36,925 nt of DNA from Acidimicrobiia bacterium (GCA_041608315.1 JBFISZ010000003.1:1-36925); one strand, 5' to 3'; shown: positions 9,242-32,841, counted from the stretch's first letter. The notes: generated from the letters alone by a model not told the origin. A program made the numbers and translations.

Positions 9242-9248
9242 GTCGTGT

Positions 9249-9271
9249 CTTCCCCTGCGTTGGAGGGGAAG
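9249..9271 (+). terminator. Stem-loop after trpB2, possible terminator or stabilising hairpin
   Basis: CTTCCCCT-7 nt-AGGGGAAG perfect 8-bp stem just after the stop; no U tract. Confidence 0.4.
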
Positions 9272-9338
9272 CCGCGGTCCCACATTGCCGGCAAGGCGAC
9301 AATCTCGGCGACCGTGCGTCCTCTGTGACCCGGCGTTT

Positions 9339-9347
9339 TGTTATCCT
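9339..9347 (+). promoter_or_regulatory. Candidate extended -10 promoter for the rid-ior-iaa operon
   Basis: TGtTATCCT about 50 nt upstream of the rid start. Confidence 0.35.
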
Positions 9348-9355
9348 CGCACCAT

Positions 9356-9393
9356 GCCACCCACTGAGGAGGGCGGCCACCCACTGAGGAGGG
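9356..9393 (+). repeat. 18-bp direct repeat at 20-nt period containing the RBS
   Basis: GCCACCCACTGAGGAGGG at 9356-9373 and 9376-9393. Confidence 0.9.
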
Positions 9394-9396
9394 TGA

Positions 9397-9819: not shown

Positions 9820-9873
9820 TGCGTCTGCATCTGCCCATCCCCCGGCAGCTGTCTCCCGGTGTGGGAGCGGACG

Positions 9874-12800
9874 ATGAGTGAACATCCGTTGCTGGCGGAC
9901 GAAGCGGGCCGTACCGAGCTGCTGCTGGGAAACGAGGCGATTGCCCGCGGAGCGATCGAGGCCGGAGTCGGGTTTGCCAGCGGCTATCCGGGGACTCCAT
10001 CCACCGAGGTGACCGACACGTTCGCTCGATTGGCTCCGGAGCTCGGCATTCCGTTCGAGTACTCGGTCAATGAGAAGGTGGCTTTGGAGATGGCGTTCGC
10101 GGCTTCTCTGGCCGGCACCCGCTCCATCGTGGCCATGAAGCACCTCGGGCTCATGTCCGCCGGCGATCCGCTGGGCACCATCTCCTACATCGGAACGGTC
10201 GGCGGGATGGTCATAGTGAGCGCCGGTGACCCGTCGCTCCACACCAGCCCCAACGAGCAGGATCAGCGCCATCTGGCGGAGATGCTGCACCTTCCGATGT
10301 TCGATCCGCGAACTCCCCAGGAGGCTCTCGAAGTCACGCGGGCTGCCTTCGAGCTCTCGGAGCGCAGTCGCCTGCCCGTCGTCGTGCGGCCGACGACACG
10401 GGTTTGCCACACATCGGCATCGGTCCGTTTCGGGCCCAGGGCCCGGCCCGTCGTTACGGGTTTTCAGCGCGACCCGAAGCGGTTCCTGCCCATGCCGGCG
10501 AACGCGCGGAGGATGAGGGTCGAGATCAAGGAGCGGCTGGCGATTGCTGCCGCCTTCATGCGCCAATCGCACTTCTTCCAGCGCAGCGGAGCCGGCCGCA
10601 ATGCCATCCTTGCTTCAGGGGCGCCGGCCGCGGTGTGCGTCGACGTGCTCGAGGCGGCCGGGGCATCAGACAGTGTGACGCTACTGTCGCTCGGCATCGT
10701 CTACCCGCTTCCCGAGGAGTGGCTGGTCGCGGCACTGCGCGAGATGGACACGGTAATCGTGGTCGAGGAGCTCTCCCCTTATCTCGAGGATCGGGTGCGG
10801 GCTCTCTGCACGCTCCATGGGCTCTCCACCAAGATCCTCGGTCAGCGCACCGGGCATCTTCCCGGGGAGTTCGAATACGGGCCCGAGGTCATCCAGGCGG
10901 CGCTCCACGACGTATTCGGCCTCGGTTCCCAGCTCGAGCCCGCCCGAACGCCGCAACCCCTCCCGGTGCGGTCACCGACGTTGTGCGTGGCCTGCCCTCA
11001 TCGGTCGGCGTTCTTTGCGGCACGCTCCGTTTTCGGGGACGACGCCCTCTACTTCAATGACATCGGCTGCTACACCCTCGGAGCCCTGCCTCCGTTGAAC
11101 GCAGGCGATGCGCTGCTCTCGATGGGCGCCGGGTTCACGCTCGCCGCAGGTGTCGCCCGTACGACCGGGAAACGAACCCTGGGCTTCGTCGGCGATTCGA
11201 CGTTCTTCCATTCGGGGATGCCGGCATTGCTCAACGCCATCAAGGAAAACGTGAACATGGTGGCGGTCGTGATGGACAACCAGGTGACGGCCATGACCGG
11301 GTTCCAGGAGAGTCCCGGGGTCGAGATCCAGGGACGGGTCGTGCAGCGCTCGGCCGACATCGCCGCCGTGGTGAGGGCGCTCGGCGCCCGTCACGTCGAG
11401 ACGATCGACCCCAACGACCTCGCCGCCGCCGTCTCCGCCTTTGAGCGAGCCAAACAGCGCGATGAGCTCAGCGTCATCATCTCGCAGCGAGCCTGCCCTA
11501 TCTTCTTCGAGCGGGAAGTCGGGCGTCGCGAGCGAGCCATCCCGGACGACGTGGCCCAGGTCGATCTGGTCGACGCTGCCGGCGAGGCCGAAGCGACTGT
11601 GGCCGAGCAAGTCGCCACTGCGATTGCCCGCCAAGGCGATGATCCGACGACACGCGGAATCGCCACCTACGCCATCGATCACGACCGCTGTCAGCACTGC
11701 GGGCGCTCGAGTTGCGGGCAGCGTTGCGCCCAGGGAGTGGAAATCGGCTTCGAACGCGCCATGGCCCGTGCCCGGTCGCTCGAAGCCGGAACGGACCTGA
11801 ACCGACCGCCGATCGCTCCCTGCGCCACCAAGTGCCCCCTCTTCCTGTGCATCCAGGGCTACTCGGCGCACATCGCCGCAGGGCGCTACGGGGACGCCCT
11901 CGAGCTCATAATGAGCGGCTTGCCACTGGCAGACTCGGTGTGTCGCGTTTGCCACCGGCCGTGCGAGGACGCCTGCGTCCTGGGCGAGCAGCCGGTCGCC
12001 ATCAACGAGCTCAAGCGGTTTGTCATGGACTGGGCCGGCGCCCAGGACGAGTTCCCCTATCGGCCGCAGCCTGCGCCCGCCAACGGCAAAACGGTTGCCG
12101 TGGTCGGAGCGGGGCCCGCCGGGCTGGCGGCCGCCCATGAGCTCGCGCTGCGCGGATACGGCGTCCGCCTCCTCGATGCCAACGACCAGCCGGGGGGGCT
12201 GCTCGCCACGGGAATCCCCTCATATCGGCTGCCACCCGAGGCGCTGCGTCGCGACGTCGATCGCATCCTCGGTTTGGGAGTCACGTTCGAGGGCAACACA
12301 CGACTGGGAACCGATGTCGACATTGATGAGCTCCTCGGAGCTCACGACGCCGTTCTGTTGGCAATCGGGACCGGCGTCGCTGCCGACCTCGAGCTCAGCG
12401 GTCGGGGCCCCGCAGTCGTCCAAGGGCTCGACTACCTCAACGGAGGCGGCGCGTCTGCCGACCGGGTCGTCGTCGTCGGTGGCGGCAACACGGCCGTAGA
12501 TGCCGGCCGCACGGCGCTGCGGCGCGGCGCATCCCGAGTAGTGCTGGCGTGCCTCGAGGACCGGGCGGAAATGCCGGCGATCGACAGCGAGATCGCCGCG
12601 GCGTGCGAGGAAGGCGTCGAACTACGCACCCGGCGCAAGGCGGTCGGGCTGGTCGCCGCGGGCATCGAGCTCGTGTCGGTGGAGCCACGAGTTCGAGGCC
12701 GGACCGATCCCGAGAATTTCGAGGTGGTCGCAGGCACCACCACCGCAATCGATGCCGACCTGGTCGTGATCGCCGTCGGGCAGCGCCCCGACCCCTCGAT

Positions 12801-13371
12801 TCGGTGGCTACCCGGCGACGTCCCGGTCTCGGCGGACGGGCCGGTTGTCGACGACGAGTGCGGGGCCACGGCTCACGAGCGGATCTTCGCCGCCGGGGAC
12901 ATGGCAGACGGCGCGGGCAGCGTCACCGATGCGATTGCCGGCGGGCTGCGGGCGGCCTGGGGCATCGACCGCAAGCTGCGGGGCGCCGCCAAAGCGGATG
13001 AGCGGCCACCCCCGCCCCGGGTCCCTTCGGGCCCACCGGCCGGGAGGCCCGGAGTATGGCGGGTCGACGACACGACGCGAGCAGCGACTCCGGAACTCGA
13101 TCCCCGCACGCGCGCGGCTACCTTCGACGAAGTAGTCGGCACCCTCACCGAGAAGACAGCTCGAGCGGAGGCCTCCCGGTGCATGATCTGTGGTCTGTGC
13201 GGCAACTGCAACGCGTGTCTCGATCTGTTCGGCTGTCCCGCGTTCTACGTCGCAGACGGCCTGATCGAGATCGACTCCGGCCTGTGTGTGGCTTGTGGGG
13301 TGTGTGCCCAGTTCTGTCCGAACGACGCCATCTACCCGGTGGCGCGATCGCCGGAGGTCGGGTCGCTTTGA
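9874..13371 (+). CDS. iorA: Indolepyruvate oxidoreductase alpha subunit fused to a GltD/NfnB-like FAD/NAD(P) Fe-S oxidoreductase and a ferredoxin domain
   Basis: LLGNEAIARGA, GYPGTPSTE, NEKVALE, CVACPHR, DIGCYTLG and GDSTFFHSG (IorA/TPP). Then CATKCP, CRVCHRPCEDAC, GAGPAG, GGGNTAVD and FAAGD (GltD-like). Ends with 4Fe-4S motifs including CVACGVCAQFCP. Confidence 0.85.
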   Translation: MSEHPLLADEAGRTELLLGNEAIARGAIEAGVGFASGYPGTPSTEVTDTFARLAPELGIPFEYSVNEKVALEMAFAASLAGTRSIVAMKHLGLMSAGDPLGTISYIGTVGGMVIVSAGDPSLHTSPNEQDQRHLAEMLHLPMFDPRTPQEALEVTRAAFELSERSRLPVVVRPTTRVCHTSASVRFGPRARPVVTGFQRDPKRFLPMPANARRMRVEIKERLAIAAAFMRQSHFFQRSGAGRNAILASGAPAAVCVDVLEAAGASDSVTLLSLGIVYPLPEEWLVAALREMDTVIVVEELSPYLEDRVRALCTLHGLSTKILGQRTGHLPGEFEYGPEVIQAALHDVFGLGSQLEPARTPQPLPVRSPTLCVACPHRSAFFAARSVFGDDALYFNDIGCYTLGALPPLNAGDALLSMGAGFTLAAGVARTTGKRTLGFVGDSTFFHSGMPALLNAIKENVNMVAVVMDNQVTAMTGFQESPGVEIQGRVVQRSADIAAVVRALGARHVETIDPNDLAAAVSAFERAKQRDELSVIISQRACPIFFEREVGRRERAIPDDVAQVDLVDAAGEAEATVAEQVATAIARQGDDPTTRGIATYAIDHDRCQHCGRSSCGQRCAQGVEIGFERAMARARSLEAGTDLNRPPIAPCATKCPLFLCIQGYSAHIAAGRYGDALELIMSGLPLADSVCRVCHRPCEDACVLGEQPVAINELKRFVMDWAGAQDEFPYRPQPAPANGKTVAVVGAGPAGLAAAHELALRGYGVRLLDANDQPGGLLATGIPSYRLPPEALRRDVDRILGLGVTFEGNTRLGTDVDIDELLGAHDAVLLAIGTGVAADLELSGRGPAVVQGLDYLNGGGASADRVVVVGGGNTAVDAGRTALRRGASRVVLACLEDRAEMPAIDSEIAAACEEGVELRTRRKAVGLVAAGIELVSVEPRVRGRTDPENFEVVAGTTTAIDADLVVIAVGQRPDPSIRWLPGDVPVSADGPVVDDECGATAHERIFAAGDMADGAGSVTDAIAGGLRAAWGIDRKLRGAAKADERPPPPRVPSGPPAGRPGVWRVDDTTRAATPELDPRTRAATFDEVVGTLTEKTARAEASRCMICGLCGNCNACLDLFGCPAFYVADGLIEIDSGLCVACGVCAQFCPNDAIYPVARSPEVGSL

Positions 13372-14039
13372 GCGGAACTCTGCAGATTGCCGTTGTCGGC
13401 GTCGGCGGCCAGGGCGTAGTCAGTCTGGCTCGCCTTCTGGGAAGGGCCGCCGTGCAGGCCGGCCTCGAAGCCCGGGTCGGCCAGATCCACGGCCTGTCGC
13501 AGCGGGGCGGCAGCGTCGAGGCGACGGTAGTGCTCGGGCCCGGAAACACCGCCTACGTCTCTCCCGGGCAAGCCGAAGTCGTCGTCGCGCTCGAGCCTCT
13601 CGAAGCGGCGCGGGCCCTTCCCAAGATATCGGGCACTGCCAGCGTGCTCGTGAATCGGACCCCGATCGTTCCTACCAACGTCACCCTCGATCGTGTCGGC
13701 TATCCCGATCTCGGCTCCCTCGTGTCGCAAATCGAGGATGTCGCCCGCGAAGTTCATCTGATCGAAGGTACCAAGCTGGCTCGCCAAGCCGGCAGCGGGC
13801 GCCTTCTCAATGTGGTCATGGTGGGCGTGGTCGCCGGGCTCGATCTGCTTCCGGTCCCCCCCGGCGTCCTGGCCGCGACGGCGGAACAGTTCCATGGCTC
13901 GCCCCACACCGTCGCCAGGCGAAAGGCCTTCTCCCTCGGTGAAGAACTGGGTCGGGAGTTGGCGGCGTCACGCCTGCTGACGGGTCGGGCGGCGATCGGC
14001 GAACCGGGTCGTGACCACCCTGCGGCCCCCCAGCGATGA
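13368..14039 (+). CDS. iorB: Indolepyruvate oxidoreductase beta subunit
   Basis: GVGGQG, IHGLSQRGGSV, ALEPLEAAR and NVVMVG. TTGA overlap with iorA; RBS GGAGG. Confidence 0.85.
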   Translation: MSGTLQIAVVGVGGQGVVSLARLLGRAAVQAGLEARVGQIHGLSQRGGSVEATVVLGPGNTAYVSPGQAEVVVALEPLEAARALPKISGTASVLVNRTPIVPTNVTLDRVGYPDLGSLVSQIEDVAREVHLIEGTKLARQAGSGRLLNVVMVGVVAGLDLLPVPPGVLAATAEQFHGSPHTVARRKAFSLGEELGRELAASRLLTGRAAIGEPGRDHPAAPQR

Positions 14040-14088
14040 TGGAGATCGCCGCGGTAGGCTGGGGCGAAACCGGAAAGCGGGCCTGAGA

Positions 14089-16164
14089 ATGGCGTACAAA
14101 CTCGGTGTCGACGTTGGCGGGACCTTCACCGACTTCTTTCTGTGGTCGGCCGATGGAACGGTCTCCACCTCCAAGACGCTCTCGACACCGTCCGATCCGT
14201 CGATCGGGGTTCTCGACGGGATCCGCCAGATTGCCGCCGACCAAGGCACCGACTTCACCTCCTTTGCGAGTCAGATAACGACCATTGTTCACGGCACCAC
14301 GGTCACCACCAACGCCACGCTGACGAGAAACGGTGCCAAGACGGGCCTGCTGACCACCAAGGGGGTCCGCGATGCGCTCGAAATGCGGCGCGGCATACGC
14401 GAGGAGCAGTACAACAACCGATTCACCAATGTCGTGCCTCTGGTACCGCGCCATCTGCGCGCTCCGGTGGCCGGAAGGCTCGACTACCAGGGAGACGAGG
14501 TGGAGCCTCTCGACCTCGATGACGTGCAAGCAGCCGTTCGGCTGTTTGCCGGCGAGCAGGTCGAGGCGGTTGCCATCTGTTTCATGAACTCGTTTGCCAA
14601 CCAGTCTCACGAAGACGTCGCCGCCGAAATCGTGCGCCGGGAGCTACCGGACGCCTTTCTCAGCGTCTCGTCTGAGGTACTGCCGACGATCCGCTTCTAC
14701 AACAGGGTTTCGACCACCGTTCTCAACTCCTACATTGGCCCGATTCTGCACAGCTACCTCGAGAGCCTGACCTCCAAGCTGGAAGCAGCCGGCTTCGGTG
14801 GCGTGCTGCTGATCATGCAATCAAACGGCGGGGTCGCCCTCCCCGAGCTCGCGATGCGGCGACCGGCGACGACACTGCTCTCCGGGCCGGCCGGGGGCCC
14901 GGGGGCGGCGGTGGCCCACACCAGGGCCCATGGAAGTGACGACTGCATCGTTGTCGACATGGGAGGTACCAGCTTCGACGCTTCATTGGTACGCGACGGT
15001 GAGGCGGCGATGTATCAGGAGAGCGAGATCGATCGGCTGCGCATCGCACTGCCGATGCTGGCGATCACCACCATCGGGGCCGGAGGGGGCAGCATCGGCT
15101 GGATCGATGAGGGAGGGCTGCTGCGGATGGGCCCGCAGTCTGCAGGCGCCGATCCCGGCCCGGCATCCTACGGCCGCGGAGGCGACCTTCCCACCTGCAC
15201 CGACGCCAACGTAGTTCTCGGGTACCTCGACCCCGAGTTCTTCGCCGGAGGAGCGATGCCACTCGAGTCAGATCAGGCGAGCAAGGCGGTTGCGCGCCAC
15301 ATCGCCGAGCCGCTCGGCCTCAGTGTCGAGGAGGCCGCGGCCGGGATGTACCGGGTCATCAACACCAACATGGCCCATGGGGTTCGCGAGATCACCGTTG
15401 AGCGCGGCTTGGACCCGCGCGATTTCCCTCTCGTGGTGGCGGGGGGAGCGGGATCCCTCCATGCGTGCATGATCGCTCGCGAGCTGGAGATCCCCTCGCT
15501 CCTCGTGCCGGCCACCGCCTCGGTTCTGTGCGCTGCCGGCATGGTGCTCAGCGACCTCCAGCACGACTTCGTGCGGTCCTATGTGTCCCGATTCGGCGAG
15601 CTCGACATGGATCGCCTGGCCGAGCTGGTTGCGACCATGACCGCCGAGGGCGATACCCAACTCGGCTTGGAGGGCATCGATCCGAAGCGGGTCGAGCACC
15701 TGATCGATCTCGACCTGCGCTACGTGAAGCAATACCACGAGGTGACGGTGCCCGTTGCCGCCCAAGCTATCGCCGCCGGCGACCTGACCACGATTGCCGA
15801 GGCCTTCCATCGCGAGCACGATCGCCTCTACGGCTACAACCTGGCCGACGAAGGCACCGAACTCGAGCTCATCAACGTCCGGGTGCGGTCCGTCGGACGG
15901 ACCGACAAGCCCGAGCTACCGACCTTGAAGCCGGGGGGCGAGGACCCGGGCGGGGCGCTCAAGGGCACGCGCCGCGCCTACGTTCCCGAGAGCGACGCCT
16001 TCGCCGACGTCGCCGTCTACGACGGGCACCGCATCGAGCCGAACAACGTCATCGCGGGCCCGGCGCTGATCGAACGGGTCGACACGACGATTCTCGTCAG
16101 CTCCTCTTTCACAGCGCGAGTTGACGACCACGGCAGCTGCCTGCTGCGCGCTAACGGAGGATGA
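14089..16164 (+). CDS. Hydantoinase/oxoprolinase A subunit; probable 2-oxindoleacetate(-CoA) hydrolase subunit (IaaCE-like)
   Basis: DVGGTFTD, HGTTVTTN, LLSGPAGG, DMGGTSFD, IGAGGGSI, GPQSAGADPGP and TDAN motifs. Substrate inferred from context. Confidence 0.9.
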   Translation: MAYKLGVDVGGTFTDFFLWSADGTVSTSKTLSTPSDPSIGVLDGIRQIAADQGTDFTSFASQITTIVHGTTVTTNATLTRNGAKTGLLTTKGVRDALEMRRGIREEQYNNRFTNVVPLVPRHLRAPVAGRLDYQGDEVEPLDLDDVQAAVRLFAGEQVEAVAICFMNSFANQSHEDVAAEIVRRELPDAFLSVSSEVLPTIRFYNRVSTTVLNSYIGPILHSYLESLTSKLEAAGFGGVLLIMQSNGGVALPELAMRRPATTLLSGPAGGPGAAVAHTRAHGSDDCIVVDMGGTSFDASLVRDGEAAMYQESEIDRLRIALPMLAITTIGAGGGSIGWIDEGGLLRMGPQSAGADPGPASYGRGGDLPTCTDANVVLGYLDPEFFAGGAMPLESDQASKAVARHIAEPLGLSVEEAAAGMYRVINTNMAHGVREITVERGLDPRDFPLVVAGGAGSLHACMIARELEIPSLLVPATASVLCAAGMVLSDLQHDFVRSYVSRFGELDMDRLAELVATMTAEGDTQLGLEGIDPKRVEHLIDLDLRYVKQYHEVTVPVAAQAIAAGDLTTIAEAFHREHDRLYGYNLADEGTELELINVRVRSVGRTDKPELPTLKPGGEDPGGALKGTRRAYVPESDAFADVAVYDGHRIEPNNVIAGPALIERVDTTILVSSSFTARVDDHGSCLLRANGG

Positions 16165-16167
16165 TTC

Positions 16168-17919
16168 ATGGCTGATCACGTTGCCGCACCCGAGATCGAC
16201 AAGGTCTTGGTGTCCATCATCGGAAGGGCGCTCAAGGCGTTCACCGACGAGATGAGCATCTCCATGGAGAAGACCACTCGCTCGCCGATTCTGTGTGAAG
16301 CGAAGGACTTCGTCACCGGCCTCTACGACGCCGAGGGCCGCATGCTGGAGCAGACGGAGAACCTGCCGATTCTCAGCTTCTCGTTGGGCCCGGTGTGCGC
16401 CCACATTGCAGAGAAATTCGCCGGCAACGTCTATCCGGGCGATGTCTTCCTCCACAACGATGTCTTCTCTCTGGGGAACCAGAACAACGATGTGGCAGCC
16501 TTCAAGCCGATCTTCGTTGGTGAGGATCTGGTGGGCTGGTCGGCCACCAAGGGACACCAGGCCGACATCGGCGGCAACGTCCGCGGCGGTTACAACCCCA
16601 ATGCCACCGAGGTGTGGCAGGAGGGGCTGCGGATCCCGGCCGTGAAGGTGTACGAGCGCGGCGAACTGCGCCGCGACGTGTGGGATCTCATCTTCGCCAA
16701 CGTGCGGCTCGACATCGTGCAAGAAGACATGCGCGCCGAGATCGGTGCCTGCACCGTGGGGGAGCGCCGCCTGATGGCCCTGGTCGAGAAGTACGGGTTG
16801 GAGCGCTTTGAGGCCCACAAGGAGTACCTCTTCGAAGCGACCCGCAAGATGATGGAGGCTGAGATCCGCGCCATTCCCGACGGGGTGTACGAGGGTGAGG
16901 GCCGGGTGTTCTTCGACGGCAAGAACGTCGGCTCGAGCTACACCATCCGGGTGAAGATCACTGTCGCCGGCGACCACATCACGTTCGACTACTCCGACAC
17001 CGACGCCCAGACAGACGCGTTCGTCAACGGGATTTACGCCTCGAGCGCCTCGGCAACGCTGTTGACGTTCCTCCAGATGGTCAATCCCGACATCCCGCAC
17101 AACCACGGCATGATCCAACCGATCGACATCATCATCCCCGAAGGCACGATCCTCAACGCGGCGTATCCGGCGGCAACGACGTTCGGCAACCACCTGTGCC
17201 CGCCGAACGCGGATTCCATCATGCGCGCTCTGGCTCCGGTAATCCCCACCCGGGTGACGGCCGGTTGGAACAACCTGCTGTGCTCGCTGACCAGCGGCGA
17301 TGACCCGCGCAAGAACGACACGTTCGTCGACATCATGTTCATGGGCCTCAAGGGCGGCTCGGGGGCAATGTGCGACACGGACGGCTACGACCACATCGGG
17401 ATGATCGACGCTTCGGGTGGATTACTCGACCAGGACTACGAGATGTTCGAGCAGCAGACGCCGCACCTCCTCCTCAAGCACGAGTTCCTGACCGACTCGG
17501 CCGGCGCCGGCGAGCACCGCGGCGGCCTGGGTGTCGAAACCCGCTATCGCATCGGGTCGGACGATACCCAGCTGGTGACGTTCGGCGACGGCGACGAGGA
17601 ACCGGCGTTCGGCCTCGCCGGCGGCACCGACGGCACGCTCAACAAGATCGAGCTCCACTATCCCGATGGCCGCGTCTACAAGACGACGAGCAAAGACCTC
17701 GTCGAGTCCGTGCCGCGGGACACCCTGTACATCCAGGAAGCCGGCGGCGGCGGTGGATACGGTGACCCGCACAAGCGCCCGGCCGCCAAGGTCCTCGCGG
17801 AAGTGCGCGACGGGGTGGTTTCGATCGGGGCAGCTCGCGACACATACGGTGTCGCCATCGACGCCGCCACTCTGGAGATCGACGAGGGCGAGACGGCCAA
17901 GCTCCGGGGTTCCCGCTGA
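16168..17919 (+). CDS. Hydantoinase/oxoprolinase B subunit (IaaCE-like)
   Basis: PGDVFLHND, HQADIGG, WQEGLRIP, DSAGAGEHRGGLG and GGGGYGDP. Confidence 0.9.
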   Translation: MADHVAAPEIDKVLVSIIGRALKAFTDEMSISMEKTTRSPILCEAKDFVTGLYDAEGRMLEQTENLPILSFSLGPVCAHIAEKFAGNVYPGDVFLHNDVFSLGNQNNDVAAFKPIFVGEDLVGWSATKGHQADIGGNVRGGYNPNATEVWQEGLRIPAVKVYERGELRRDVWDLIFANVRLDIVQEDMRAEIGACTVGERRLMALVEKYGLERFEAHKEYLFEATRKMMEAEIRAIPDGVYEGEGRVFFDGKNVGSSYTIRVKITVAGDHITFDYSDTDAQTDAFVNGIYASSASATLLTFLQMVNPDIPHNHGMIQPIDIIIPEGTILNAAYPAATTFGNHLCPPNADSIMRALAPVIPTRVTAGWNNLLCSLTSGDDPRKNDTFVDIMFMGLKGGSGAMCDTDGYDHIGMIDASGGLLDQDYEMFEQQTPHLLLKHEFLTDSAGAGEHRGGLGVETRYRIGSDDTQLVTFGDGDEEPAFGLAGGTDGTLNKIELHYPDGRVYKTTSKDLVESVPRDTLYIQEAGGGGGYGDPHKRPAAKVLAEVRDGVVSIGAARDTYGVAIDAATLEIDEGETAKLRGSR

Positions 17920-17922
17920 GCC

Positions 17923-19041
17923 ATGGACTTCGCGCTGACCGAGGAACAAGAGGCGGTGCGCAAGCTGTTCCGGGAGTTCGCCGACAACGATATCCGGCCC
18001 TTGGCGAGAGATCTCGATCAGAACCCCCGCTTCCCGGCCGACCTGTTTCGTGCGATTGGGAAGCTGGGCTTCTTTGCGATGCGCTATCCAGAGCCCGAGG
18101 GCGGTGGGGCCGACCCGCTGTCCTACCTGGTGGCCGTCGAGGAGCTGGCCCGGGGCTCGCTGGCCGTGGCCGCCGCCGCAAGCATGCAGTCGCTCATGGG
18201 CACCTTCTTCGTGCACCGCTTTGCCGAGGGCGATCTGCGAGGGCGCCTGCTGGCACCGGCCTTGCGGGGAGACGTCGTCGGCACGATATGTATGACAGAG
18301 CCCGACGCCGGCAGCGACCTGCTTGCGATGACGACGAGCGCCGCCCAGCACGACGACGCCTGGCTCATCACCGGGCAGAAGACGTGGATCACGTCGGCAC
18401 CCGTCGCCGACATGTTCACCGTGTTTGCGCGCACCGGCGAGAGGGAGCTCAGCATCTTCCTGGTGGAACGCGACGCCCCGGGCCTCACGGTGGGGCGCTC
18501 GATCGACAAGATGGGTGTCAAGGCATCTCTGACCTCGGAGGTCTTCTTCGACGAGACACCGGCGACGGCCATGCTGGGCGGGCGCGGTGAAGGGGTTCCC
18601 AGCCTGCGAGAGATCCTCGACGAGATCCGGTTGATGACCGCGGCGCTGGCGCTGGGCGTCGCCGGAGCGGCCTTCGACGATGCCCTCGCCTATTCGCAGG
18701 AACGGGTGCAGTTTGGCAAGGCGATAAACCGGTTCCAGTCGATTCAGATTCACCTGGCCGAGATGCGCACCAAGCTGGCGGCGGCGCGCCAACTCACTCA
18801 TTGGGCGGCCTGGCGCGCCGAGCGCGGCCTGGAGAACACCGACCAGTCGGCAATGGCCAAGCTGTTCGCCTCGGAGACGGCTCTCGAGGTGTGTGAGCGG
18901 GCGGCCCGGATAATGGCCAGCTACGGCTACGCCGCCGAGTACGACGTCGAGCGCTACCTGCGCGACGTTCGCTTCACTCTCATCGGCGGGGGGACATCGG
19001 AGATCCTCCGTCTCAATATCGCCAGGGGCTTGACGAGATGA
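17923..19041 (+). CDS. iaaF: Acyl-CoA dehydrogenase; probable (2-amino)benzylmalonyl-CoA dehydrogenase
   Basis: MTEPDAGSD, GQKTWIT, RVQFGK, AMAKLFASE and IGGGTSEI. Specific name rests on adjacency to the B12 mutase in an iaa-like cluster. Confidence 0.75.
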   Translation: MDFALTEEQEAVRKLFREFADNDIRPLARDLDQNPRFPADLFRAIGKLGFFAMRYPEPEGGGADPLSYLVAVEELARGSLAVAAAASMQSLMGTFFVHRFAEGDLRGRLLAPALRGDVVGTICMTEPDAGSDLLAMTTSAAQHDDAWLITGQKTWITSAPVADMFTVFARTGERELSIFLVERDAPGLTVGRSIDKMGVKASLTSEVFFDETPATAMLGGRGEGVPSLREILDEIRLMTAALALGVAGAAFDDALAYSQERVQFGKAINRFQSIQIHLAEMRTKLAAARQLTHWAAWRAERGLENTDQSAMAKLFASETALEVCERAARIMASYGYAAEYDVERYLRDVRFTLIGGGTSEILRLNIARGLTR

Positions 19042-19436
19042 CGTCTCGCCCGATCCGGGTGCTCATGGCCAAGCCGGGCCTCGACGGCCACGATGTGGGC
19101 GTCAAGGTCGTGTGCCGGGCGCTCATGGACGCCGGCATGGAGGTGATCTACACCGGTCTGCGCAGCTCGCCGGCGGCCATCGCGGCAGCCGCCGCCGATG
19201 AAGATCCCGACGTTGTCGGGCTGTCGGTGCTGTCCGGCGCCCATCTGCCGCTGGCGGCGAAGGTGGTCGACGAACTGGCCAAGCTTCAGGTCGACGGTGT
19301 GCTGCTGCTCGCCGGGGGCAACATCCCGGCCCAGGATCACGACGCCTTGCGCCAGCTCGGATTCGGCGGCATCTTCCCCACCGGAAGCCCCCTCGACGAG
19401 ATCGTGGGCTATATCGAGCAGGAGGTGCCTCGATGA
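19038..19436 (+). CDS. Cobalamin-binding small subunit of an acyl-CoA mutase (IaaGH-like)
   Basis: KPGLDGHDVG (DxHxxG), VGLSVLSGAH and GGNIP. ATGA overlaps on both sides. Confidence 0.9.
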   Translation: MTSRPIRVLMAKPGLDGHDVGVKVVCRALMDAGMEVIYTGLRSSPAAIAAAAADEDPDVVGLSVLSGAHLPLAAKVVDELAKLQVDGVLLLAGGNIPAQDHDALRQLGFGGIFPTGSPLDEIVGYIEQEVPR

Positions 19437-21034
19437 GTAGCCGGGAGCCGGACCGGGTCGAATGGGAGTCGGGACTCGAGGTCAAGGTCGTCTACGGTCC
19501 CGAAGACGTCACCGGCTCCGGTGGCGATGCCGGGATCGGCCGCCCCGGCGAGTACCCGTTCACACGAGGCATTCACCCGTCCATGTACCGCTCCCGCCCG
19601 TTCACGATGCGCCAGTACTCGGGCTTTGGGACCGCAGCCGAGACCCATGAGCGGTTCCTGTTCCTGATCGAGCAGGGCAACACCGGGCTCAACGTCGCGT
19701 TCGACCTGCCAACCCAATGCGGGCTCGATTCCGACGATCCGATGGCCGAGGGTGAGGTGGGCCGCGTCGGAATGGCCGTGGATTCGCTGGCCGACATGGA
19801 GGAAGCCTTCGCCGACATCCCGCTGAACGAGATCACCGTATCGCTAACCATCAACGGGGCGGCGGTGCCGATCCTCGCCATGTATTTCGCCATGGCCCGC
19901 AAGCGGGACTACGACCTGGCGACACTGCGGGGTAACTCGCAAAACGACATCCTCAAGGAGTTCATCGGGCGGGGCACGTGGATTTTCCCAGTCGAGGCGT
20001 CGATCAAGCTGGTGGGCGACACCATCGAGTACTGCGCCCAGAACGCTCCCCGCTACAGCCCCGTCAGTGTTTGCGGCTACCACATCCGCGAGTCGGGAGC
20101 CACGCCGGCCCAGGAAATGGCCTACGGGCTAGCCATTGCCAGGGCGTACCTCGACCATTCGCTCGAGCGGGGTCTCGACGCCAACCGGGTTGCCCGCGGC
20201 CTCACGTTCAACTTCGACGTGTTCGGGAACCTGTGGGAGCAGGTCTGCAAGTTCCGGGCCGGCCGGAGGCTGTGGGCCAAGATCCTCAAGGAACAGTACG
20301 GGGTGACGGACCCCAAGGCGATGCACATGCGAATGATTGCCGGCGGCGGCGGGGGCGGCCTGACGATCGAGCAGCCCGAGAACAACATCATGCGCGGCGC
20401 CTACTACGCCCTGGCGAGTGCACTGTCCGGCACTCAGACGATGGCGCTGTGCAGCTATGACGAGGCGTACACGATCCCGACCGAGCATGCCGCCAAGCTC
20501 TCGCTGCGCACGATGCAGCTCCTGGTTCACGAGGTGGGGCTGGCCGACACGGTCGACCCCCTGGCGGGCTCCTACTTCATCGAGACCATGACCAACGAGA
20601 TGGAAGCCGAGATGGTGCGGCTCATGAGCAAACTCGATGCCGAGGGCGGCATCGTCGCCGCCGTGGCGGAAGGTCGGATCCAAGCCGAAGTCAACCGCCA
20701 GGCCTATGAACGGGAACGCCGTATCGCCGGCGGCGCAGTCAAGAAAGTGGGCGTGAACATCTACCGCGAGGAGGAGGCGGAACGGGCCGTCGCGATGCAC
20801 CCCTACCGGCGGGAGGAGGCCGATGCCCAGCTCGACCGTCTCCGGGCGATCCGAGCCGGGCGCGATGCGGCGGCCGTTGCCACGGCGCTCGATGAGCTGC
20901 GGGCCGCGGCGGGCGAGGGCCGCAACGTCATGCCGGCAGCCATCGATGCGGTCGAGGCATATGCAACGGTCGGGGAGGTCTGCGCCGCGCTTCGCGACGT
21001 CTTCGGGACGTACAACGAGCCGATCCTCTTCTGA
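19433..21034 (+). CDS. Methylmalonyl-CoA-mutase-family large subunit; probable (2-aminophenyl)succinyl-CoA mutase
   Basis: PGEYPFTRGIH, MRQYSGFG, AFDLPTQ, QNDILKE, GYHIRE, YDEA and DPLAGSY. Confidence 0.88.
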   Translation: MSSREPDRVEWESGLEVKVVYGPEDVTGSGGDAGIGRPGEYPFTRGIHPSMYRSRPFTMRQYSGFGTAAETHERFLFLIEQGNTGLNVAFDLPTQCGLDSDDPMAEGEVGRVGMAVDSLADMEEAFADIPLNEITVSLTINGAAVPILAMYFAMARKRDYDLATLRGNSQNDILKEFIGRGTWIFPVEASIKLVGDTIEYCAQNAPRYSPVSVCGYHIRESGATPAQEMAYGLAIARAYLDHSLERGLDANRVARGLTFNFDVFGNLWEQVCKFRAGRRLWAKILKEQYGVTDPKAMHMRMIAGGGGGGLTIEQPENNIMRGAYYALASALSGTQTMALCSYDEAYTIPTEHAAKLSLRTMQLLVHEVGLADTVDPLAGSYFIETMTNEMEAEMVRLMSKLDAEGGIVAAVAEGRIQAEVNRQAYERERRIAGGAVKKVGVNIYREEEAERAVAMHPYRREEADAQLDRLRAIRAGRDAAAVATALDELRAAAGEGRNVMPAAIDAVEAYATVGEVCAALRDVFGTYNEPILF

Positions 21035-21038
21035 TGCG

Positions 21039-22244
21039 ATGAACGATCGACCCATCGTGATCAGCCTCGAGCAGGCGCTGAGCATGCCCTACGGAACCCT
21101 GCGCTTCGTGCACCTCGGCTGGAGGGTGATTCGCGTCGAGTCGACACCGCGGCCGGGACAGCGCGCCCGTGGCGACCCCAACCGCTACATCGGCCGACCT
21201 GTTGGTGGCGACGATCGCCACAGCTACTACGTGGCACCCAACGTGGGCAAGGAGGCGATCGCCCTCAACCTGAAGGACCCGGAGGGGCGGGCCGCCCTCC
21301 ACCGGTTGATCAAGGAGCTCGCAGTGGACGTGGTGTGCACCAACACGATGCCGGCCCGCCATGTGGAGCTCGGCATCGACTACGCGACTCTGCACTCGAT
21401 CCATCCCGCTGTTATCTGGTGCGCGATCTCGGCTATGGGTCTCGACTACCCCGACGTTCCCGGATACGATCCGGTCACCCAAGCCCAGGTCGGCTTCATG
21501 GATCTCACCGGGGAGCGGGACGGGCCGCCCACTCAATGTGGGCCCCCGCTCACCGACCTGAAGGCGGGCGACGAAGCTTTTGCGCAGGTGCTGCTGGCGA
21601 TGCTCGAAAGGGAACGAACCGGCCGCGGCAAGATGATTGACATCGCGATGGCCCAGGCCGCCGCCTCGTGGCTGCACACCTTCACGCCGTTGCTCGACAT
21701 GGGCAGCGCCCCCGAGGAGCTGAGACGCAACGGCAACCGCCACCGCCAGTTCTTTCCTGTGAACGCCTACGCGACGGCCGACGGGTTCATCTATCTGGCC
21801 ATCGGCAGTGACGCCCAGTGGGCCCGGTTTGTCGCCCAGCCCATGTTTGCCGCGTTGGCCGAACGACGCTTCGAGAGCAACGAAGGCCGTCGCGCCGGGC
21901 AGGACGACCTCCACCGCCTGATCGGTGAAGTCATCGCGCAGCACGACAGCGATCGGGTGGCCGCCGCGCTCGATGCCGCCACCATCCCCAATTCGCCGAT
22001 AACGGCGATCGAGGACGTTGGCGACCTTCCCTTCGTGCGAGACACTGCGCTGCACACCGAGACGCCCGCCGGCCACCGCGTCCGCCTCCCGCCGCCCGCC
22101 GTCGCAGTGCCTCATCTAGAGGACCTCGGCAGGAAGCTCCCGTTCCCGCCGGCATACGGTGAACACACCGATGCGATACTGGCGGAAGCCGGGTTCACGC
22201 CAAGCGAGCTGACGGGTTTGCGCGAGCATGGAGTCATAGCCTGA
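21039..22244 (+). CDS. iaaL: Family III (CaiB/BaiF) CoA transferase; phenylsuccinyl-CoA transferase-like
   Basis: LEQALSMP, VIRVES, NVGKEAIALNLK, PGYD, GFMDLTG and PPAYGEHT. Specific name from context. Confidence 0.75.
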   Translation: MNDRPIVISLEQALSMPYGTLRFVHLGWRVIRVESTPRPGQRARGDPNRYIGRPVGGDDRHSYYVAPNVGKEAIALNLKDPEGRAALHRLIKELAVDVVCTNTMPARHVELGIDYATLHSIHPAVIWCAISAMGLDYPDVPGYDPVTQAQVGFMDLTGERDGPPTQCGPPLTDLKAGDEAFAQVLLAMLERERTGRGKMIDIAMAQAAASWLHTFTPLLDMGSAPEELRRNGNRHRQFFPVNAYATADGFIYLAIGSDAQWARFVAQPMFAALAERRFESNEGRRAGQDDLHRLIGEVIAQHDSDRVAAALDAATIPNSPITAIEDVGDLPFVRDTALHTETPAGHRVRLPPPAVAVPHLEDLGRKLPFPPAYGEHTDAILAEAGFTPSELTGLREHGVIA

Positions 22245-23101
22245 TGAGATTCGAGTACTACCAGCCGAGCACGACGGCCGAGGCCCTCGAGCTGGCGGCG
22301 CGTTTTCCCGATGCCGAGATCATCGCCGGCGGCACCGATCTGATGGTGCGCCTCAACAAGACGCGTCGTCGCCCGCCGGCCCTGATCTCTCTGCGTCGCG
22401 TTCGAGAGCTGGCTCACATCGAGAACGGCGCCGGGCTGCGCATCGGTGCCGCGGTCCCACTCCGAGACGTGGCCGCCCACCCTGCCGTGACGGCCGGCTA
22501 CCCGGCTCTGGTCGATGCCATCCGGGTGTTCGGTAGTCCCCAGATCCGCAATATGGCGACCCTCGCCGGCAACCTGTGCAACGCCTCCCCGGGGGCAGAC
22601 TGTGCCCCGCCGCTGCTGATATACGACGCAGTCGTCGAGCTGCGAAGCGCCGCCGGCGTGCGGGAGCTGACGATCGAGGATTTCATCCTCGGCCCGGGCG
22701 CAACCGCGCTGGAGGCGGGCGAGATCGTGACGGCCATCCGGCTGCCCCCACTGCCGCCGGACGCCCGCTCGATGTACCTCCGCAAGGGCCGGGTGCAGAT
22801 GGACCTGGCCATCACCGGTGTCGCGGCCCGCCTCGAGCTGGATGGAGCCATCTGTGTGGCAGCCCGGATCGCGGCCGGGGCGGTCGCTCCGGTGCCGCGG
22901 CGGCTGTCGCGGACCGAATCCGTGGTCGCCGGCGCCGCGGCCGGGGCGGAGACGTGGGCGCGAGCCCGAGCCGAGGCCCAGGACGAGATATCGCCGATAA
23001 GCGACGTGCGAGCCTCCGAGCAATACCGCCGCCACCTGACCGGTGTGCTCGTCGAACGCTCCCTGGCGCAACTCGCCTCAACCAGCGGAGGTGGAACGTG
23101 A
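22244..23101 (+). CDS. Xanthine-dehydrogenase-family FAD subunit (IaaIJK-like indoleacetate hydroxylase)
   Basis: AGGTDL, QIRNMATLAGNLCNASPGAD and SDVRASEQYR; no 4Fe-4S insert. Confidence 0.88.
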   Translation: MRFEYYQPSTTAEALELAARFPDAEIIAGGTDLMVRLNKTRRRPPALISLRRVRELAHIENGAGLRIGAAVPLRDVAAHPAVTAGYPALVDAIRVFGSPQIRNMATLAGNLCNASPGADCAPPLLIYDAVVELRSAAGVRELTIEDFILGPGATALEAGEIVTAIRLPPLPPDARSMYLRKGRVQMDLAITGVAARLELDGAICVAARIAAGAVAPVPRRLSRTESVVAGAAAGAETWARARAEAQDEISPISDVRASEQYRRHLTGVLVERSLAQLASTSGGGT

Positions 23102-23583
23102 AAGTGGAGGTCGGCTTCCGGCTGAACGGCTATGAGGTGCGCGCCGAGGTCGAGCCCCATCGGCGGCTCCTCGATGTCCTGCGCGACACCCTGGGCGAGA
23201 CGGGCACCAAGGAAGGGTGCGGCGAAGGGGAGTGCGGTGCCTGCACGGTGCTGGTCGACGGCGCTGCCGTGAACTCCTGCCTCTTCCCGGTGTGCGAAGC
23301 CGCCGGGACGGCGGTGACAACGGTCGAAGGACTCGCCACGGCGAGCGGATCACTGTCGCCGCTTCAGCGGGCCTTTCTGGATCACGGCGGCGCTCAGTGC
23401 GGGTTCTGCACTCCCGGCATCGTGATGGCGGGCGTGGCTCTACTCGCCGAGAATCCCAATCCGAGCGACGCCGAGATCCGCTATGCGCTGACAGGAAACC
23501 TGTGCCGCTGCACCGGGTACATCCAGATCCTCGACGCAATCCGGACGGCGGCCCTCGTGACGCGGGGCGGCTCGAGTGACTGA
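23098..23583 (+). CDS. Xanthine-dehydrogenase-family 2x[2Fe-2S] subunit
   Basis: GTKEGCGEGECGACTV, QCGFCTPG and GNLCRCTGY. GTGA overlap with the FAD subunit. Confidence 0.9.
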   Translation: MKVEVGFRLNGYEVRAEVEPHRRLLDVLRDTLGETGTKEGCGEGECGACTVLVDGAAVNSCLFPVCEAAGTAVTTVEGLATASGSLSPLQRAFLDHGGAQCGFCTPGIVMAGVALLAENPNPSDAEIRYALTGNLCRCTGYIQILDAIRTAALVTRGGSSD

Positions 23584-27966: not shown

Positions 27967-27970
27967 GCCA

Positions 27971-29161
27971 ATGACTCTCGAGAAGTCCTTCATCCCCTAC
28001 GGCGGCTACTGGTCGACGCCGTTCTGTCGCTGGCAGGGCAGCCTCGGCGACGCTCACTCGATCAAGCTGGCCGGTCGCGTCGGCAAGGCGTTTCTCGACG
28101 CGAAGCAGATTCCGCCGGAGTCGTTCGACGGGGTCGCGCTGGGGATCACGGTGACGCAGGCATTCGCTTTCTATGGAGCGCCCTGGTTGGCGGGCATGAT
28201 CGGAGCCGAGGGCGTTACGGGCCCCACCGTCTCGCAAGCTTGTGCCACTTCGGTGCGCGTGCTGGCCGGCGCCGCGCTCGAGGTGGAGACGGGCCAGCGG
28301 GATTGCATTCTCACGGTCGGGTGCGACCGTACGAGCAACGGACCCCACGTCTACTACCCCGATCCCGGCGGCCCCGGGGGGCAGGGCACGTTTGAGGATC
28401 CGGTGCTCGGGAACATGAACAAGGACCCTTATGCCGGCTCGGCCATGGTGCAGACGGCCGAGAACCTGGCCGCCGCAGCCGGCATCACCCGCGAGGAGCA
28501 GGAGTCCGTAGCGCTCGAGCGGTACGAGCAGTACACAAAGGCCCTCGCCGCCGACCGGGCATTCCAGAAGAAGTACATGGTCCCGGTCGAGCTGATGCGC
28601 CGCGGCAAAGTAGTCGGAGTCGTCGAGGCCGATGAGGGCGTTCACGAGATGACCGCCGAGGGCTTGGCGCGGCTGCGGCCCGTTGTCGAAAACGGGACGA
28701 TCACCTTCGGCACGCAGACGCATCCGGCGGATGGGAACGCGGGAATCATCGTCACTTCGCAGGAGAAGGCCGCCGAGCTGGCGAGCGGGCCCGCCTCCAT
28801 TCGGATCCTGTCCTACGGTGAGGCCCGGGTCGAAAAGGCATTCATGCCCAAGGCCGTTGTTCCCGCCGCCCGTGACGCCCTGCAGCGGGCCGGACTCGAC
28901 GCCGGCCAGATGGCGGCGATCAAGACCCACAACCCGTTTGCGGTATCGGACGTCTACTTCTGCCGCGAGCTGGATATCGCGGCCGAGGCCGTCAACAACT
29001 ACGGGTCGACGTTGATCTGGGGTCATCCCCAGGCCCCGATGGGGATGCGGGCCATAATCGAGCTGATCGAGGAGCTCGTCATCCGCGGCGGCGGTTACGG
29101 CCTCTTCTCCGGCTGCGCCGGCGGGGACTCGGCGATGTCCCTCGTCCTGGAAGTGGCCTAG
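27971..29161 (+). CDS. iaaA: Thiolase; probable 2-aminobenzoylacetyl-CoA thiolase
   Basis: QACATS, ADGNAG, GHP and CAGG motifs; HNPF in place of NEAF. Confidence 0.8.
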   Translation: MTLEKSFIPYGGYWSTPFCRWQGSLGDAHSIKLAGRVGKAFLDAKQIPPESFDGVALGITVTQAFAFYGAPWLAGMIGAEGVTGPTVSQACATSVRVLAGAALEVETGQRDCILTVGCDRTSNGPHVYYPDPGGPGGQGTFEDPVLGNMNKDPYAGSAMVQTAENLAAAAGITREEQESVALERYEQYTKALAADRAFQKKYMVPVELMRRGKVVGVVEADEGVHEMTAEGLARLRPVVENGTITFGTQTHPADGNAGIIVTSQEKAAELASGPASIRILSYGEARVEKAFMPKAVVPAARDALQRAGLDAGQMAAIKTHNPFAVSDVYFCRELDIAAEAVNNYGSTLIWGHPQAPMGMRAIIELIEELVIRGGGYGLFSGCAGGDSAMSLVLEVA

Positions 29162-32825: not shown

Positions 32826-32841
32826 GCTCAGGAAGGTTGAC

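Follow-up and report, generated by a model that had tools for sequence, protein, structure and literature searches.

A gene fusing an indolepyruvate oxidoreductase α subunit with an iron–sulfur flavoprotein in an Acidimicrobiia bacterium: a candidate self-contained indolepyruvate:NAD+ oxidoreductase

The DNA analysed here, called the window throughout, is a stretch of 36,925 nucleotides from an Acidimicrobiia bacterium (GCA_041608315.1 JBFISZ010000003.1:1-36925). Its plus strand carries a gene for a protein of 1165 residues (P0001) in which the thiamine pyrophosphate (TPP) core of IorA, the α subunit of indolepyruvate oxidoreductase (IOR), is followed by an extra cysteine motif, by an iron–sulfur (Fe-S) flavoprotein resembling NfnB, GltD and DsrL, and finally by an IorA-type 2x[4Fe-4S] ferredoxin. 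The gene for the β subunit, IorB, comes directly after it and is followed by a set of genes of the iaa (indoleacetate) type. The features are the following:

9874..13371 (+): whole fused gene, with IorA core, Fe-S flavoprotein and IorA-type ferredoxin (Pfam, NCBIfam, homologue coverage)
9916..10488 (+): POR_N pyrimidine-binding domain, residues 15-205 (PF01855; the structural model superposes on the α subunit of oxoacid:ferredoxin oxidoreductases, OFORs)
10969..11529 (+): TPP-binding domain, including the proximal [4Fe-4S] site and the Mg-TPP motif GDS...N (PF02775, TIGR03336, conserved residues)
11530..11664 (+): linker, residues 553-597, of low confidence (predicted local distance difference test, pLDDT, below 50 at 556-574 and 580-593)
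11665..11748 (+): IorA-ferredoxin-like lead-in 'YAIDHDRCQHCG...C' with C606, C609 and C618 (cysteine conservation)
11815..12045 (+): Fer4_20 helical Fe-S domain of the GltD/NfnB/DPD type, residues 648-724 (PF14691; alignments to NfnB, NfnA and StnC)
12085..12993 (+): two-Rossmann module for flavin adenine dinucleotide (FAD) and NAD(P), residues 738-1040 (PF07992; alignment to 5jca_L and 4ylf_B)
13090..13191 (+): helix and RCxxC element, residues 1073-1106 (HMMER alignment to the NfnB N-terminus)
13192..13353 (+): IorA-type 2x[4Fe-4S] ferredoxin, residues 1107-1160 (TIGR03336 model positions 551-595, comparison of profile models)
13368..14039 (+): IorB, β subunit, POR domain (PF01558)
14011..29161 (+): downstream iaa-type genes (Pfam, NCBIfam, synteny)

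The fused gene lies in a single, unbroken open frame (9859..13371, plus strand). Its likely start is the ATG at 9874, since a GGGAG sequence stands 8 nt upstream, and it ends with the TGA at 13369-13371. A first-pass annotation, made from the DNA sequence alone, had described an uninterrupted IorA frame with a flavoprotein inserted at its ferredoxin domain. That observation is confirmed, as every string that it quoted is present in the translation: YAIDHDRCQHCG at residues 599-610, CLEDRAEMPA at 893-902, CGNCNACLDLFGCPAF at 1109-1124 and CVACGVCAQFCP at 1138-1149. A protein of about 500 residues with Fe-S, FAD and NAD(P) features (residues ~611-1108) separates the two IorA-like ferredoxin strings. 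The Pfam architecture is likewise as claimed, with POR_N (residues 26-205, 50.3 bits), TPP_enzyme_C (396-535, 70 bits), Fer4_20 (PF14691; 648-724, 56.9 bits), Pyr_redox_2 (PF07992; 740-1023, 93.4 bits) and Fer4 (1131-1154, 27.8 bits) all over their curated cut-offs. On the DNA, the NCBIfam model IOR_alpha (TIGR03336) is matched twice, over its positions 2-541 (572.5 bits) and again over 551-595 (35.2 bits), so that the last 45 model positions reappear at 13195-13332. The model NF009410 (PRK12771), which describes a stand-alone 'NAD(P)-binding protein', covers residues 647-1153 only, with 372 bits against a cut-off of 516. The core of the fused protein is that of an IorA and its insert that of an NfnL/DsrL-type flavoprotein, and it reaches the curated cut-off of neither. 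The IorB gene begins with a TTG at 13368 that shares bases with the fused gene's stop codon TGA (TTGA) and is preceded by GGAGG at a distance of 10 nt; its product matches PF01558 with 95.8 bits, and IOR_beta models are its best matches at 148-156 bits, below their cut-offs of 206-238.

To which kind does the C-terminal ferredoxin belong? Hidden Markov models (HMMs) were built from the tails of 22 canonical IorA proteins and from seven PorD-type tails of stand-alone flavoproteins, and were applied to the eight-cysteine core (residues 1109-1148 in the window protein). The IorA HMM outscored the PorD-type HMM in 99/99 fused proteins, with means of 59.7 and 31.0 bits and, in the window protein, scores of 62.8 and 31.4. 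The spacing CxxCxxC-x5-CP agrees, being found in all 99 fused proteins and in 21 of the 22 canonical IorA proteins, as against x3 in 7/7 PorD-type tails. In a cruder run on tails of 75 residues the IorA HMM was the higher in 35/102; these tails included the RCxxC element, and the stand-alone set was mixed, in that it contained a fragment from the fused family as well as four proteins whose spacing is IorA-like. The IorA-like tail is not exclusive to the fusion, because four other stand-alone flavoproteins (P0153, P0163, P0196 and P0222) also favour the IorA HMM, with a clear margin in two cases (53.5 and 48.4 bits). By these scores, the C-terminal eight-cysteine core is of IorA's own ferredoxin kind. 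As this C-terminal part holds a complete eight-cysteine ferredoxin, the insertion point is placed before the ferredoxin domain and not inside it. The position of the flavoprotein between the IorA core and the IorA ferredoxin, as first described, therefore stands, with the correction that the ferredoxin itself is not interrupted. The lead-in that had been taken for the ferredoxin's beginning does resemble an IorA ferredoxin, but probably forms a further conserved four-cysteine site instead (C606/C609/C618/C659).

One might suspect that the assembly is chimeric, or that the fusion is decaying and has no function, as the source genome is fragmented (204 contigs, 72% complete) and as one related locus (L036, 10001-13487) matches the fused gene over residues 5-1156 in an interrupted frame, not as one open reading frame (ORF). 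A homologue search was run against a collection of 5.8 billion proteins; 8000 candidates were scored, 1192 of them at E <= 0.001, and the 120 best matches were listed. Among these 120 (51-100% identity), 116 span at least 98% of the fused protein with the same Pfam set. In contigs drawn from one genome per species, 583 stretches encode a relative, and the locus counts given below rest on 80 loci fetched of these. Both halves occur in 50 of the 80 loci, in 48 of them as one ORF of more than 1000 residues, and 30 loci are unfused. The fused loci, almost all of them records of metagenome-assembled genomes (MAGs), carry about ten phylum labels, including Acidimicrobiia, Planctomycetota, Krumholzibacteriia, Acidobacteriota, Myxococcota, Gemmatimonadota, Bacteroidota, Ignavibacteriota and Armatimonadota; the nearest record is an Acidimicrobiia MAG (L009) with 77% identity over the core. 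In one locus, L076 (10001-12961), the match reaches residue 1040 only and the C-terminal ferredoxin is seemingly absent. Four public metagenome runs, each from a different study, have contigs that cover the ORF without indels in short, low-depth pieces, none of which spans it whole; one contig crosses the junction (11208-11947) and may derive from the source sample. The fused gene is not a misassembly: the same single ORF recurs in 48 independent loci and in 116 database clusters, with all cofactor residues invariant, and we give an artefact of either sort practically no weight. Public annotations call the fused proteins 'FAD-dependent oxidoreductase', 'indolepyruvate ferredoxin oxidoreductase alpha subunit' or 'ferredoxin--NADP reductase'. 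A literature search that covered mainly the text of open-access articles, a recent PFOR review among them, returned no published description of an IorA–flavoprotein fusion, nor of IOR genes in iaa clusters.

Residue conservation was counted over 49 fused proteins. All 49 keep the proximal [4Fe-4S] cysteines (C371, C374, C399 and C541), the Mg-TPP residues D441 and N469, and the eight cysteines of the ferredoxin (C1109, C1112, C1115 and C1121; C1138, C1141, C1144 and C1148). Equally invariant are C606, C609, C618 and C659, C614 being found in only 9/49. We infer that C606, C609 and C618, which belong to the lead-in 'YAIDHDRC..C', join C659 in one additional [4Fe-4S] site. The Fer4_20 domain of the window protein offers C650, C654, C659, C690, C693, C697 and C701, of which C654, C693 and C697 are kept in 49/49. 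The remaining pattern is all-or-none: C650, C701, C1103 and C1106 are all four present in 29/49 and all four missing in 20/49, with no mixed case, which fits one shared cluster ligated across the permuted element. This element, a helix with an RCxxC motif (residues 1073-1106), supplies C1103 and C1106; HMMER aligns it (query 474-507) to 4ylf_B 9-42 with a weak 2.7 bits, and an NfnB-type helix and RCxxC element after the flavin module is also present in 9bov_A, 9n5u_A and 8oh5_C. In 54 closer relatives 24 cysteines are invariant, enough for six [4Fe-4S] clusters.

The 20 proteins without those four cysteines form a single clade, dominated by Bacteroidota (20 fused loci, e.g. L039-L045 and L058-L072), in which the equivalents of C650, C701, C1103 and C1106 are mostly Ser, Phe or Tyr and C690 is Gly. 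In these loci the fused gene also stands downstream, and not upstream, of the mutase and CoA-transferase genes. To judge from these replacements, the clade would encode a five-cluster variant of the enzyme.

An AlphaFold2 model built on the 54-sequence alignment has a mean pLDDT of 84.9 and a predicted template modelling score (pTM) of 0.75, with weak linkers at residues 352-369 and 556-593. Residues 640-1152 superpose on NfnA of the Thermococcus sibiricus NfnABC complex (9n5v_A; Z 41.5, root mean square deviation 2.7 Å, 460 residues aligned) and nearly as well on StnC (Z 40.6). NfnB is matched by residues 622-1040 (Z 33.4), and OFOR α subunits by residues 12-356 (Z 31-33.5; for 9bt4_A Z 33.5, deviation 2.7 Å, 329 aligned). 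Foldseek agrees with these superpositions on NfnA/StnC, NfnB and OFOR α, and the best sequence match of the flavin module is to NfnA/StnC of NfnABC/Stn (E about 1e-69). The FAD motif GxGxxG lies at residues 745-750 and the NAD(P) motif GGGN at 869-872; G745, G747, G750, G869-871 and D876 are kept in 49/49.

The nearest solved relatives of this module thus sit in bifurcating complexes (NfnABC, Stn and NfnSL), which raises the question of whether its flavin bifurcates or confurcates, linking low-potential electrons from the oxoacid to another donor or acceptor, one of higher potential. Room for such a partner might be seen in the IaaF-type acyl-CoA dehydrogenase, which is syntenic in 23/50 fused loci and whose acceptor is given as unknown in a section of PMC8360864. 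According to the pertinent text of PMC11829005, however, the homologous FAD of NfnABC accepts a hydride from NADPH and passes electrons one by one to the [4Fe-4S] chain, bifurcation taking place at the FMN of NfnB. Further markers can be drawn from excerpts of PMC12221290, in which bifurcating NfnB proteins are distinguished by Arg333, a long N-terminus and an upstream nfnA gene, and in which stand-alone NfnB-like proteins are plain ferredoxin:NADP+ oxidoreductases. In the window protein I903 aligns with NfnB Arg333 (5jca_L), and among 47 fused proteins the equivalent residue is F in 20, I in 15, L in 7, S in 2, W, A and D in one each, and Arg in none. By Pfam and NCBIfam, no nfnA- or NfnBC-like gene flanks the fused gene, which has RidA-family and TrpB-like genes upstream and IorB downstream. 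Moreover, unfused IorA is found in the same synteny. Since the homologous FAD of NfnABC is non-bifurcating and Arg333 and nfnA are missing, the flavin is probably a simple one-electron/two-electron converter, and we regard bifurcation or confurcation as very unlikely. One specific form of it, to which we attach hardly any credence, would have the flavoprotein merge the indolepyruvate electrons, of very low potential, with the high-potential ones of the syntenic IaaF-type benzylmalonyl-CoA dehydrogenase onto NAD+, bypassing electron transfer flavoprotein and quinone, with the extra four-cysteine site as the second entry.

The nucleotide can be approached through the triplet C893-L894-E895 (nt 12550-12558), which replaces YRR at the end of β2. 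In the 54-sequence alignment the triplet is of the C/L/E type in 35-38 sequences and Y-R-R in 16; counted over 48 loci, the split is 30 xxE to 16 YRR, and 2 were unparsed. The relevant passages of PMC7596348 state that Y310-R311-R312 of NfnB hold the 2'-phosphate of NADP(H), that DsrL with YRR is strictly NADP-dependent, and that non-YRR DsrL-1 is NAD-preferring or NAD-only in assays. As the window enzyme has C-L-E instead of YRR, and as the measured non-YRR DsrL proteins use NAD, NAD+ is predicted; by analogy only, it is the better guess, in keeping with the hint of NAD given by the first-pass annotation. On the same analogy, the relatives at 16/48 loci are predicted to be of the NADP type.

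Behind IorAB the window encodes hydantoinase A/B, an acyl-CoA dehydrogenase, B12-binding and mutase subunits, a family III CoA-transferase, a molybdenum (Mo) hydroxylase (FAD, [2Fe-2S] and molybdenum cofactor, Moco, subunits), an enoyl-CoA hydratase/3-hydroxyacyl-CoA dehydrogenase fusion and a thiolase. By family-level assignment (Pfam and NCBIfam) this set probably corresponds to that of the Aromatoleum iaa pathway, with the CoA-transferase as putative counterpart of IaaL, the B12 mutase of IaaGH and the acyl-CoA dehydrogenase of IaaF; all of the families listed are present in order in the window and syntenic in other phyla. Ebenau-Jehle and colleagues are said to have assigned hydantoinase and Mo-enzyme steps to that pathway in 2012. 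IaaB, in the part of PMC8360864 that deals with the pathway, makes indoleacetyl-CoA, and IaaL, IaaGH and IaaF act later. NCBIfam, which contains no Iaa models, gave no over-cut-off names for the downstream neighbours or for the benzoyl-CoA reductase (BCR)-like genes discussed below; the best names for hydantoinase A/B, caprolactamase and acetophenone carboxylase, are below cut-off. The listed ORF of the CoA-transferase starts at 20823, within the mutase gene that ends at 21034, and because of this overlap the true start is probably later.

Synteny was scored by tblastn of the window proteins against the 80 loci. IorB comes after IorA in 48/50 fused and 30/30 unfused loci, and at least one of hydantoinase A/B, mutase and CoA-transferase, at thresholds of at least 40% identity and at least 50% coverage, is present in 34/50 fused and 15/30 unfused loci. 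This linkage extends to Bacteroidota loci in which IorA identity is only 29-31%. The PpsA/B-like and TrpB-like genes, with one or two exceptions for the latter, are not conserved partners.

We propose, with a probability of roughly 60%, that the fused protein and IorB together act as an indolepyruvate:NAD+ oxidoreductase that is complete in itself and supplies indoleacetyl-CoA to an auxin/tryptophan pathway of the anaerobic type. Such a self-contained indolepyruvate:NAD(P)+ reaction, which the first-pass annotation had suggested, is consistent with the gene context, with the cysteines of the clusters and with FAD and NAD(P) motifs that are intact. In the proposed reaction, the fused α subunit and IorB would oxidatively decarboxylate indolepyruvate with CoA at TPP to indoleacetyl-CoA and CO2. 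The two electrons would leave TPP singly along a [4Fe-4S] wire, passing first to the proximal cluster (C371/C374/C399/C541), then to the two clusters of the IorA-type ferredoxin, on to the extra site (C606/C609/C618/C659) and through one or two GltD-type clusters; FAD would gather both electrons and reduce the pyridine nucleotide, predicted to be NAD+ in the window enzyme, in the exergonic direction. IorAB would thus turn tryptophan-derived indolepyruvate directly into indoleacetyl-CoA, the entry metabolite of the iaa-type route, and replace the indoleacetate-CoA ligase step, opening an oxygen-independent route from tryptophan or indolepyruvate to 2-aminobenzoyl-CoA/benzoyl-CoA. No AMP-dependent CoA ligase domain (PF00501) was found among the window ORFs scanned with Pfam.

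Several points weigh against this proposal. Everything said here of the enzyme's function, from the substrate and the order of the clusters to the direction of flow and the preferred nucleotide, is deduced from the architecture, conservation, motifs and synteny of the fused gene. The cluster order in particular is taken from structural homologies. On the protein, IOR_alpha is matched over residues 15-552 (model positions 3-541 of 595) with 606.4 bits, below its equivalog cut-off of 650.9. Because enzymes of the IOR family accept several arylpyruvates, the substrate assignment derives from synteny alone, and 16/50 fused loci have no iaa-type gene, six of them with some 10 kb of sequence to either side of the gene (L016, L022, L028, L031, L038 and L076). 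The association of the nucleotide types with the pathway, 26/30 xxE-type loci being iaa-linked against 6/16 of the YRR type, consists of raw counts that ignore kinship. Since unfused IorA stands in the same synteny in the 15 unfused loci counted above, the flavin module is not required for the pathway. On another contig the source genome also encodes a canonical IorA (602 residues, 679.5 bits), paired with an IorB of its own. The loss of the four cysteines, being confined to one clade, represents one evolutionary event and not 20. Finally, the ferredoxin domain is surface-exposed and could still serve external acceptors.

Some of these points would also fit an enzyme of the same chemistry and NAD(P) module that acts on phenylpyruvate, 4-hydroxyphenylpyruvate or another 2-oxoacid, its iaa-type neighbours being only loosely related to it. 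A section of PMC5109826 describes IOR-family enzymes that turn several arylpyruvates into arylacetyl-CoA, and the IOR_alpha score under the cut-off, the 16 loci without iaa-type genes and the ten of 16 YRR-type loci that are unlinked can be read in the same sense. The operon-like linkage to hydantoinase, mutase, CoA-transferase and acyl-CoA dehydrogenase, found in 34/50 fused loci of many phyla and likewise with unfused IorA, argues for indolepyruvate, as do the TrpB-like enzymes that adjoin the gene here and in L063 and L065. We therefore consider another substrate unlikely.

The acceptor has to be weighed in a similar way. A ferredoxin or other external carrier could be the main acceptor, with the flavoprotein as a reversible NAD(P)H:ferredoxin link that buffers the clusters or passes low-potential electrons to, for instance, a BCR-like enzyme. 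The first-pass annotation had named such a hub for BCR and Hcr (4-hydroxybenzoyl-CoA reductase) as an alternative. The IorA-type ferredoxin domain is fully kept, DsrL enzymes ran in both directions in vitro (from excerpts of PMC7596348), and BCR-like genes lie 18 kb downstream in the window (31512-35798). A six-frame scan of the window for the classical ferredoxin motif C..C..C...CP, other ferredoxin types not being scanned for, gave one match, inside the fused ORF; the earlier remark that the window has no free ferredoxin gene therefore holds for the classical kind. Both Mo-enzymes of the window have [2Fe-2S] subunits. Against an external acceptor, homologues of BcrAD/HGD-D were found in 0/50 fused loci at the thresholds used (L068 has one BcrAD-like match of 27-32%), and the conserved partners are the iaa-type genes. 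The label Hcr fares no better, as the gene concerned scores 515 bits against a cut-off of 994.55 for the 4-hydroxybenzoyl-CoA reductase α subunit and more likely encodes the Mo-hydroxylase of the pathway. By their redox potentials, electrons near the 2-oxoacid couple would be expected to run downhill to NAD(P)+ through the intact flavin site, whereas NADH cannot reduce a BCR-type ferredoxin uncoupled and the markers of bifurcating NfnB are missing. An external carrier as the main acceptor thus seems improbable to us, and the hub for BCR and Hcr is not borne out by the loci.

The proposed indolepyruvate:NAD+ oxidoreductase shares parts with several known systems. With IorAB (TIGR03336/TIGR03334), of which the Pyrococcus furiosus enzyme is cited in a section of PMC5109826, it has in common the TPP core, the proximal cysteines, the C-terminal IorA-type ferredoxin with x5 spacing and the adjacent IorB. 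It differs in about 550 extra residues between core and ferredoxin, which hold the extra four-cysteine site, the GltD-type clusters, the FAD and the NAD(P) site, in its score below the equivalog cut-off, and in a predicted acceptor, NAD+, that is not a free ferredoxin. The NfnL domain of NfnA/StnC (9n5u/9n5v, 9bov and 8oh5) is its best sequence and fold match, with the RCxxC helix after the flavin module and then a ferredoxin-like domain, and in the text of PMC11829005 on NfnABC the FAD there is likewise a non-bifurcating gate between pyridine nucleotide and cluster chain; NfnA/StnC have in addition YRR (NADP), an N-terminal [2Fe-2S] part, a formate-dehydrogenase-like C-terminus and NfnB/C partners, none of which is found in the fused protein. 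DsrL/PRK12771 (NF009410) offers the same succession of Fer4_20, FAD/NAD(P) module, linker and C-terminal 2x[4Fe-4S] ferredoxin, together with the switch between YRR and non-YRR forms; DsrL-like genes beside OFOR genes are noted in PMC7596348. In contrast to DsrL, the module lies inside IorA, scores 372 vs 516 bits, carries an IorA-type ferredoxin and not a PorD-like one with x3 spacing, and is preceded by the extra cysteine site. Stand-alone NfnB-like ferredoxin:NADP+ oxidoreductases of the Cac_0764 type, as portrayed in part of PMC12221290, also combine Fer4_20 with Pyr_redox_2 in the absence of NfnA and Arg333, for a transfer that conserves no energy; they are separate proteins that need free ferredoxin and have been characterised with NADP.

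Electrons of an OFOR also reach NAD(P)+ through a bound flavoprotein in phenylglyoxylate:NAD+ oxidoreductase (PadEFGHI of Azoarcus/Aromatoleum) and in the pyruvate:NADP+ oxidoreductase (PNO) of Euglena and Cryptosporidium. Pad is an enzyme of five subunits, one of which we take to be GltD-like, and PNO has a cytochrome-P450-reductase-type FMN/FAD module fused at its C-terminus. Neither places the flavin module between core and ferredoxin, and the fused IorA belongs to neither type. The product that Pad forms from phenylglyoxylate is benzoyl-CoA (from the portion of PMC5109826 that cites Hirsch 1998), and a PNO study is cited in the accessible part of PMC13768988.

A tree of 82 IorA cores, rooted at midpoint only, places fused forms in at least four places, comprising the all-fused clade of 20, the clade of 24 to which the window protein belongs and several single branches that lie deep in the tree. 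At least four changes between the fused and the unfused state are needed, and under the midpoint root several gains and several losses are both compatible with the tree. The sister group of the window's clade consists of 19 unfused IorAs, mostly iaa-linked. Some stand-alone proteins of 585-608 residues (P0131, P0134 and P0144) start at the 'Y.ID...C..C' lead-in and end with an IorA-type ferredoxin; they may represent the fusion in split form.

OFORs normally need a separate low-potential carrier. If true, an Fe-S/FAD wire to NAD+ built into IorA would open arylpyruvate oxidation to organisms that have no ferredoxin economy. The hosts include many MAGs of Planctomycetota, Bacteroidota, Gemmatimonadota and Acidimicrobiia, in which the reaction would yield indoleacetyl-CoA directly. 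The CoA-dependent, oxygen-independent iaa route is known from Aromatoleum and a few anaerobes, and the linkage to iaa-type genes under about ten phylum labels suggests that such degradation of tryptophan and auxin is far more widespread than known; entry at indolepyruvate would spare the ATP-dependent ligase. With a natural switch between YRR and an x-hydrophobic-E triplet and a clade that would be short of one cluster, the family may be useful for studies of nucleotide specificity and electron wiring, and for biocatalysis the fused enzyme offers a compact candidate where acyl-CoA synthesis is to be coupled to NADH.

Directly upstream of the fused gene (7772-9819, plus strand) are genes for a RidA-family protein and a TrpB-like enzyme dependent on pyridoxal phosphate (NF009057, 726 bits, over cut-off). 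A TrpB-like gene is also beside IorA in L063 and L065, and RidA-like genes occur inside the cluster in eight fused loci, mostly of Bacteroidota. These neighbours hint at a feeding route from indole and serine through tryptophan to indolepyruvate. Farther upstream, 604-1890 and 1961-3784 (+) encode a PPDK_N-domain and a PEP-utilizer-domain protein of the two-protein, phenylphosphate-synthase-like kind. Adjoining these, on the minus strand, is a second Mo-enzyme, of the XDH family (FAD subunit 3839-4825, Moco subunit 4822-7308, [2Fe-2S] subunit 7233-7745); the plus-strand ORF 7326-7772 is a shadow of the [2Fe-2S] gene.

In the canonical pair of the source genome (L001, contig C45, 600-3276, minus strand), IorB has 291 residues with a C-terminal extension. 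As this extension carries two CxxCxxCxxxCP motifs, the second IOR of the genome would have an extra ferredoxin on its β subunit. Another OFOR α-like gene comes after this IorA/IorB pair. Two apparent joints within the fused gene, at 11102/11189 and 12131/12881, were each seen in one contig of one public run, with short sides of 20-28 letters, and were taken as sequence of other organisms.

At the far end of the window, a block at 31033-35798 (+) consists of a TetR regulator and then four genes whose best NCBIfam names, all far below their cut-offs, are benzoyl-CoA reductase C, B, A/Q and D. It may encode a class I BCR of divergent sequence or some other ATP-dependent reductase or dehydratase, and its products could plausibly take the 2-aminobenzoyl-/benzoyl-CoA end product of the pathway. 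Between the thiolase and this block, an ORF at 29571-29960 (+) encodes a MazF/PemK-like toxin domain (PF02452, 63.7 bits).

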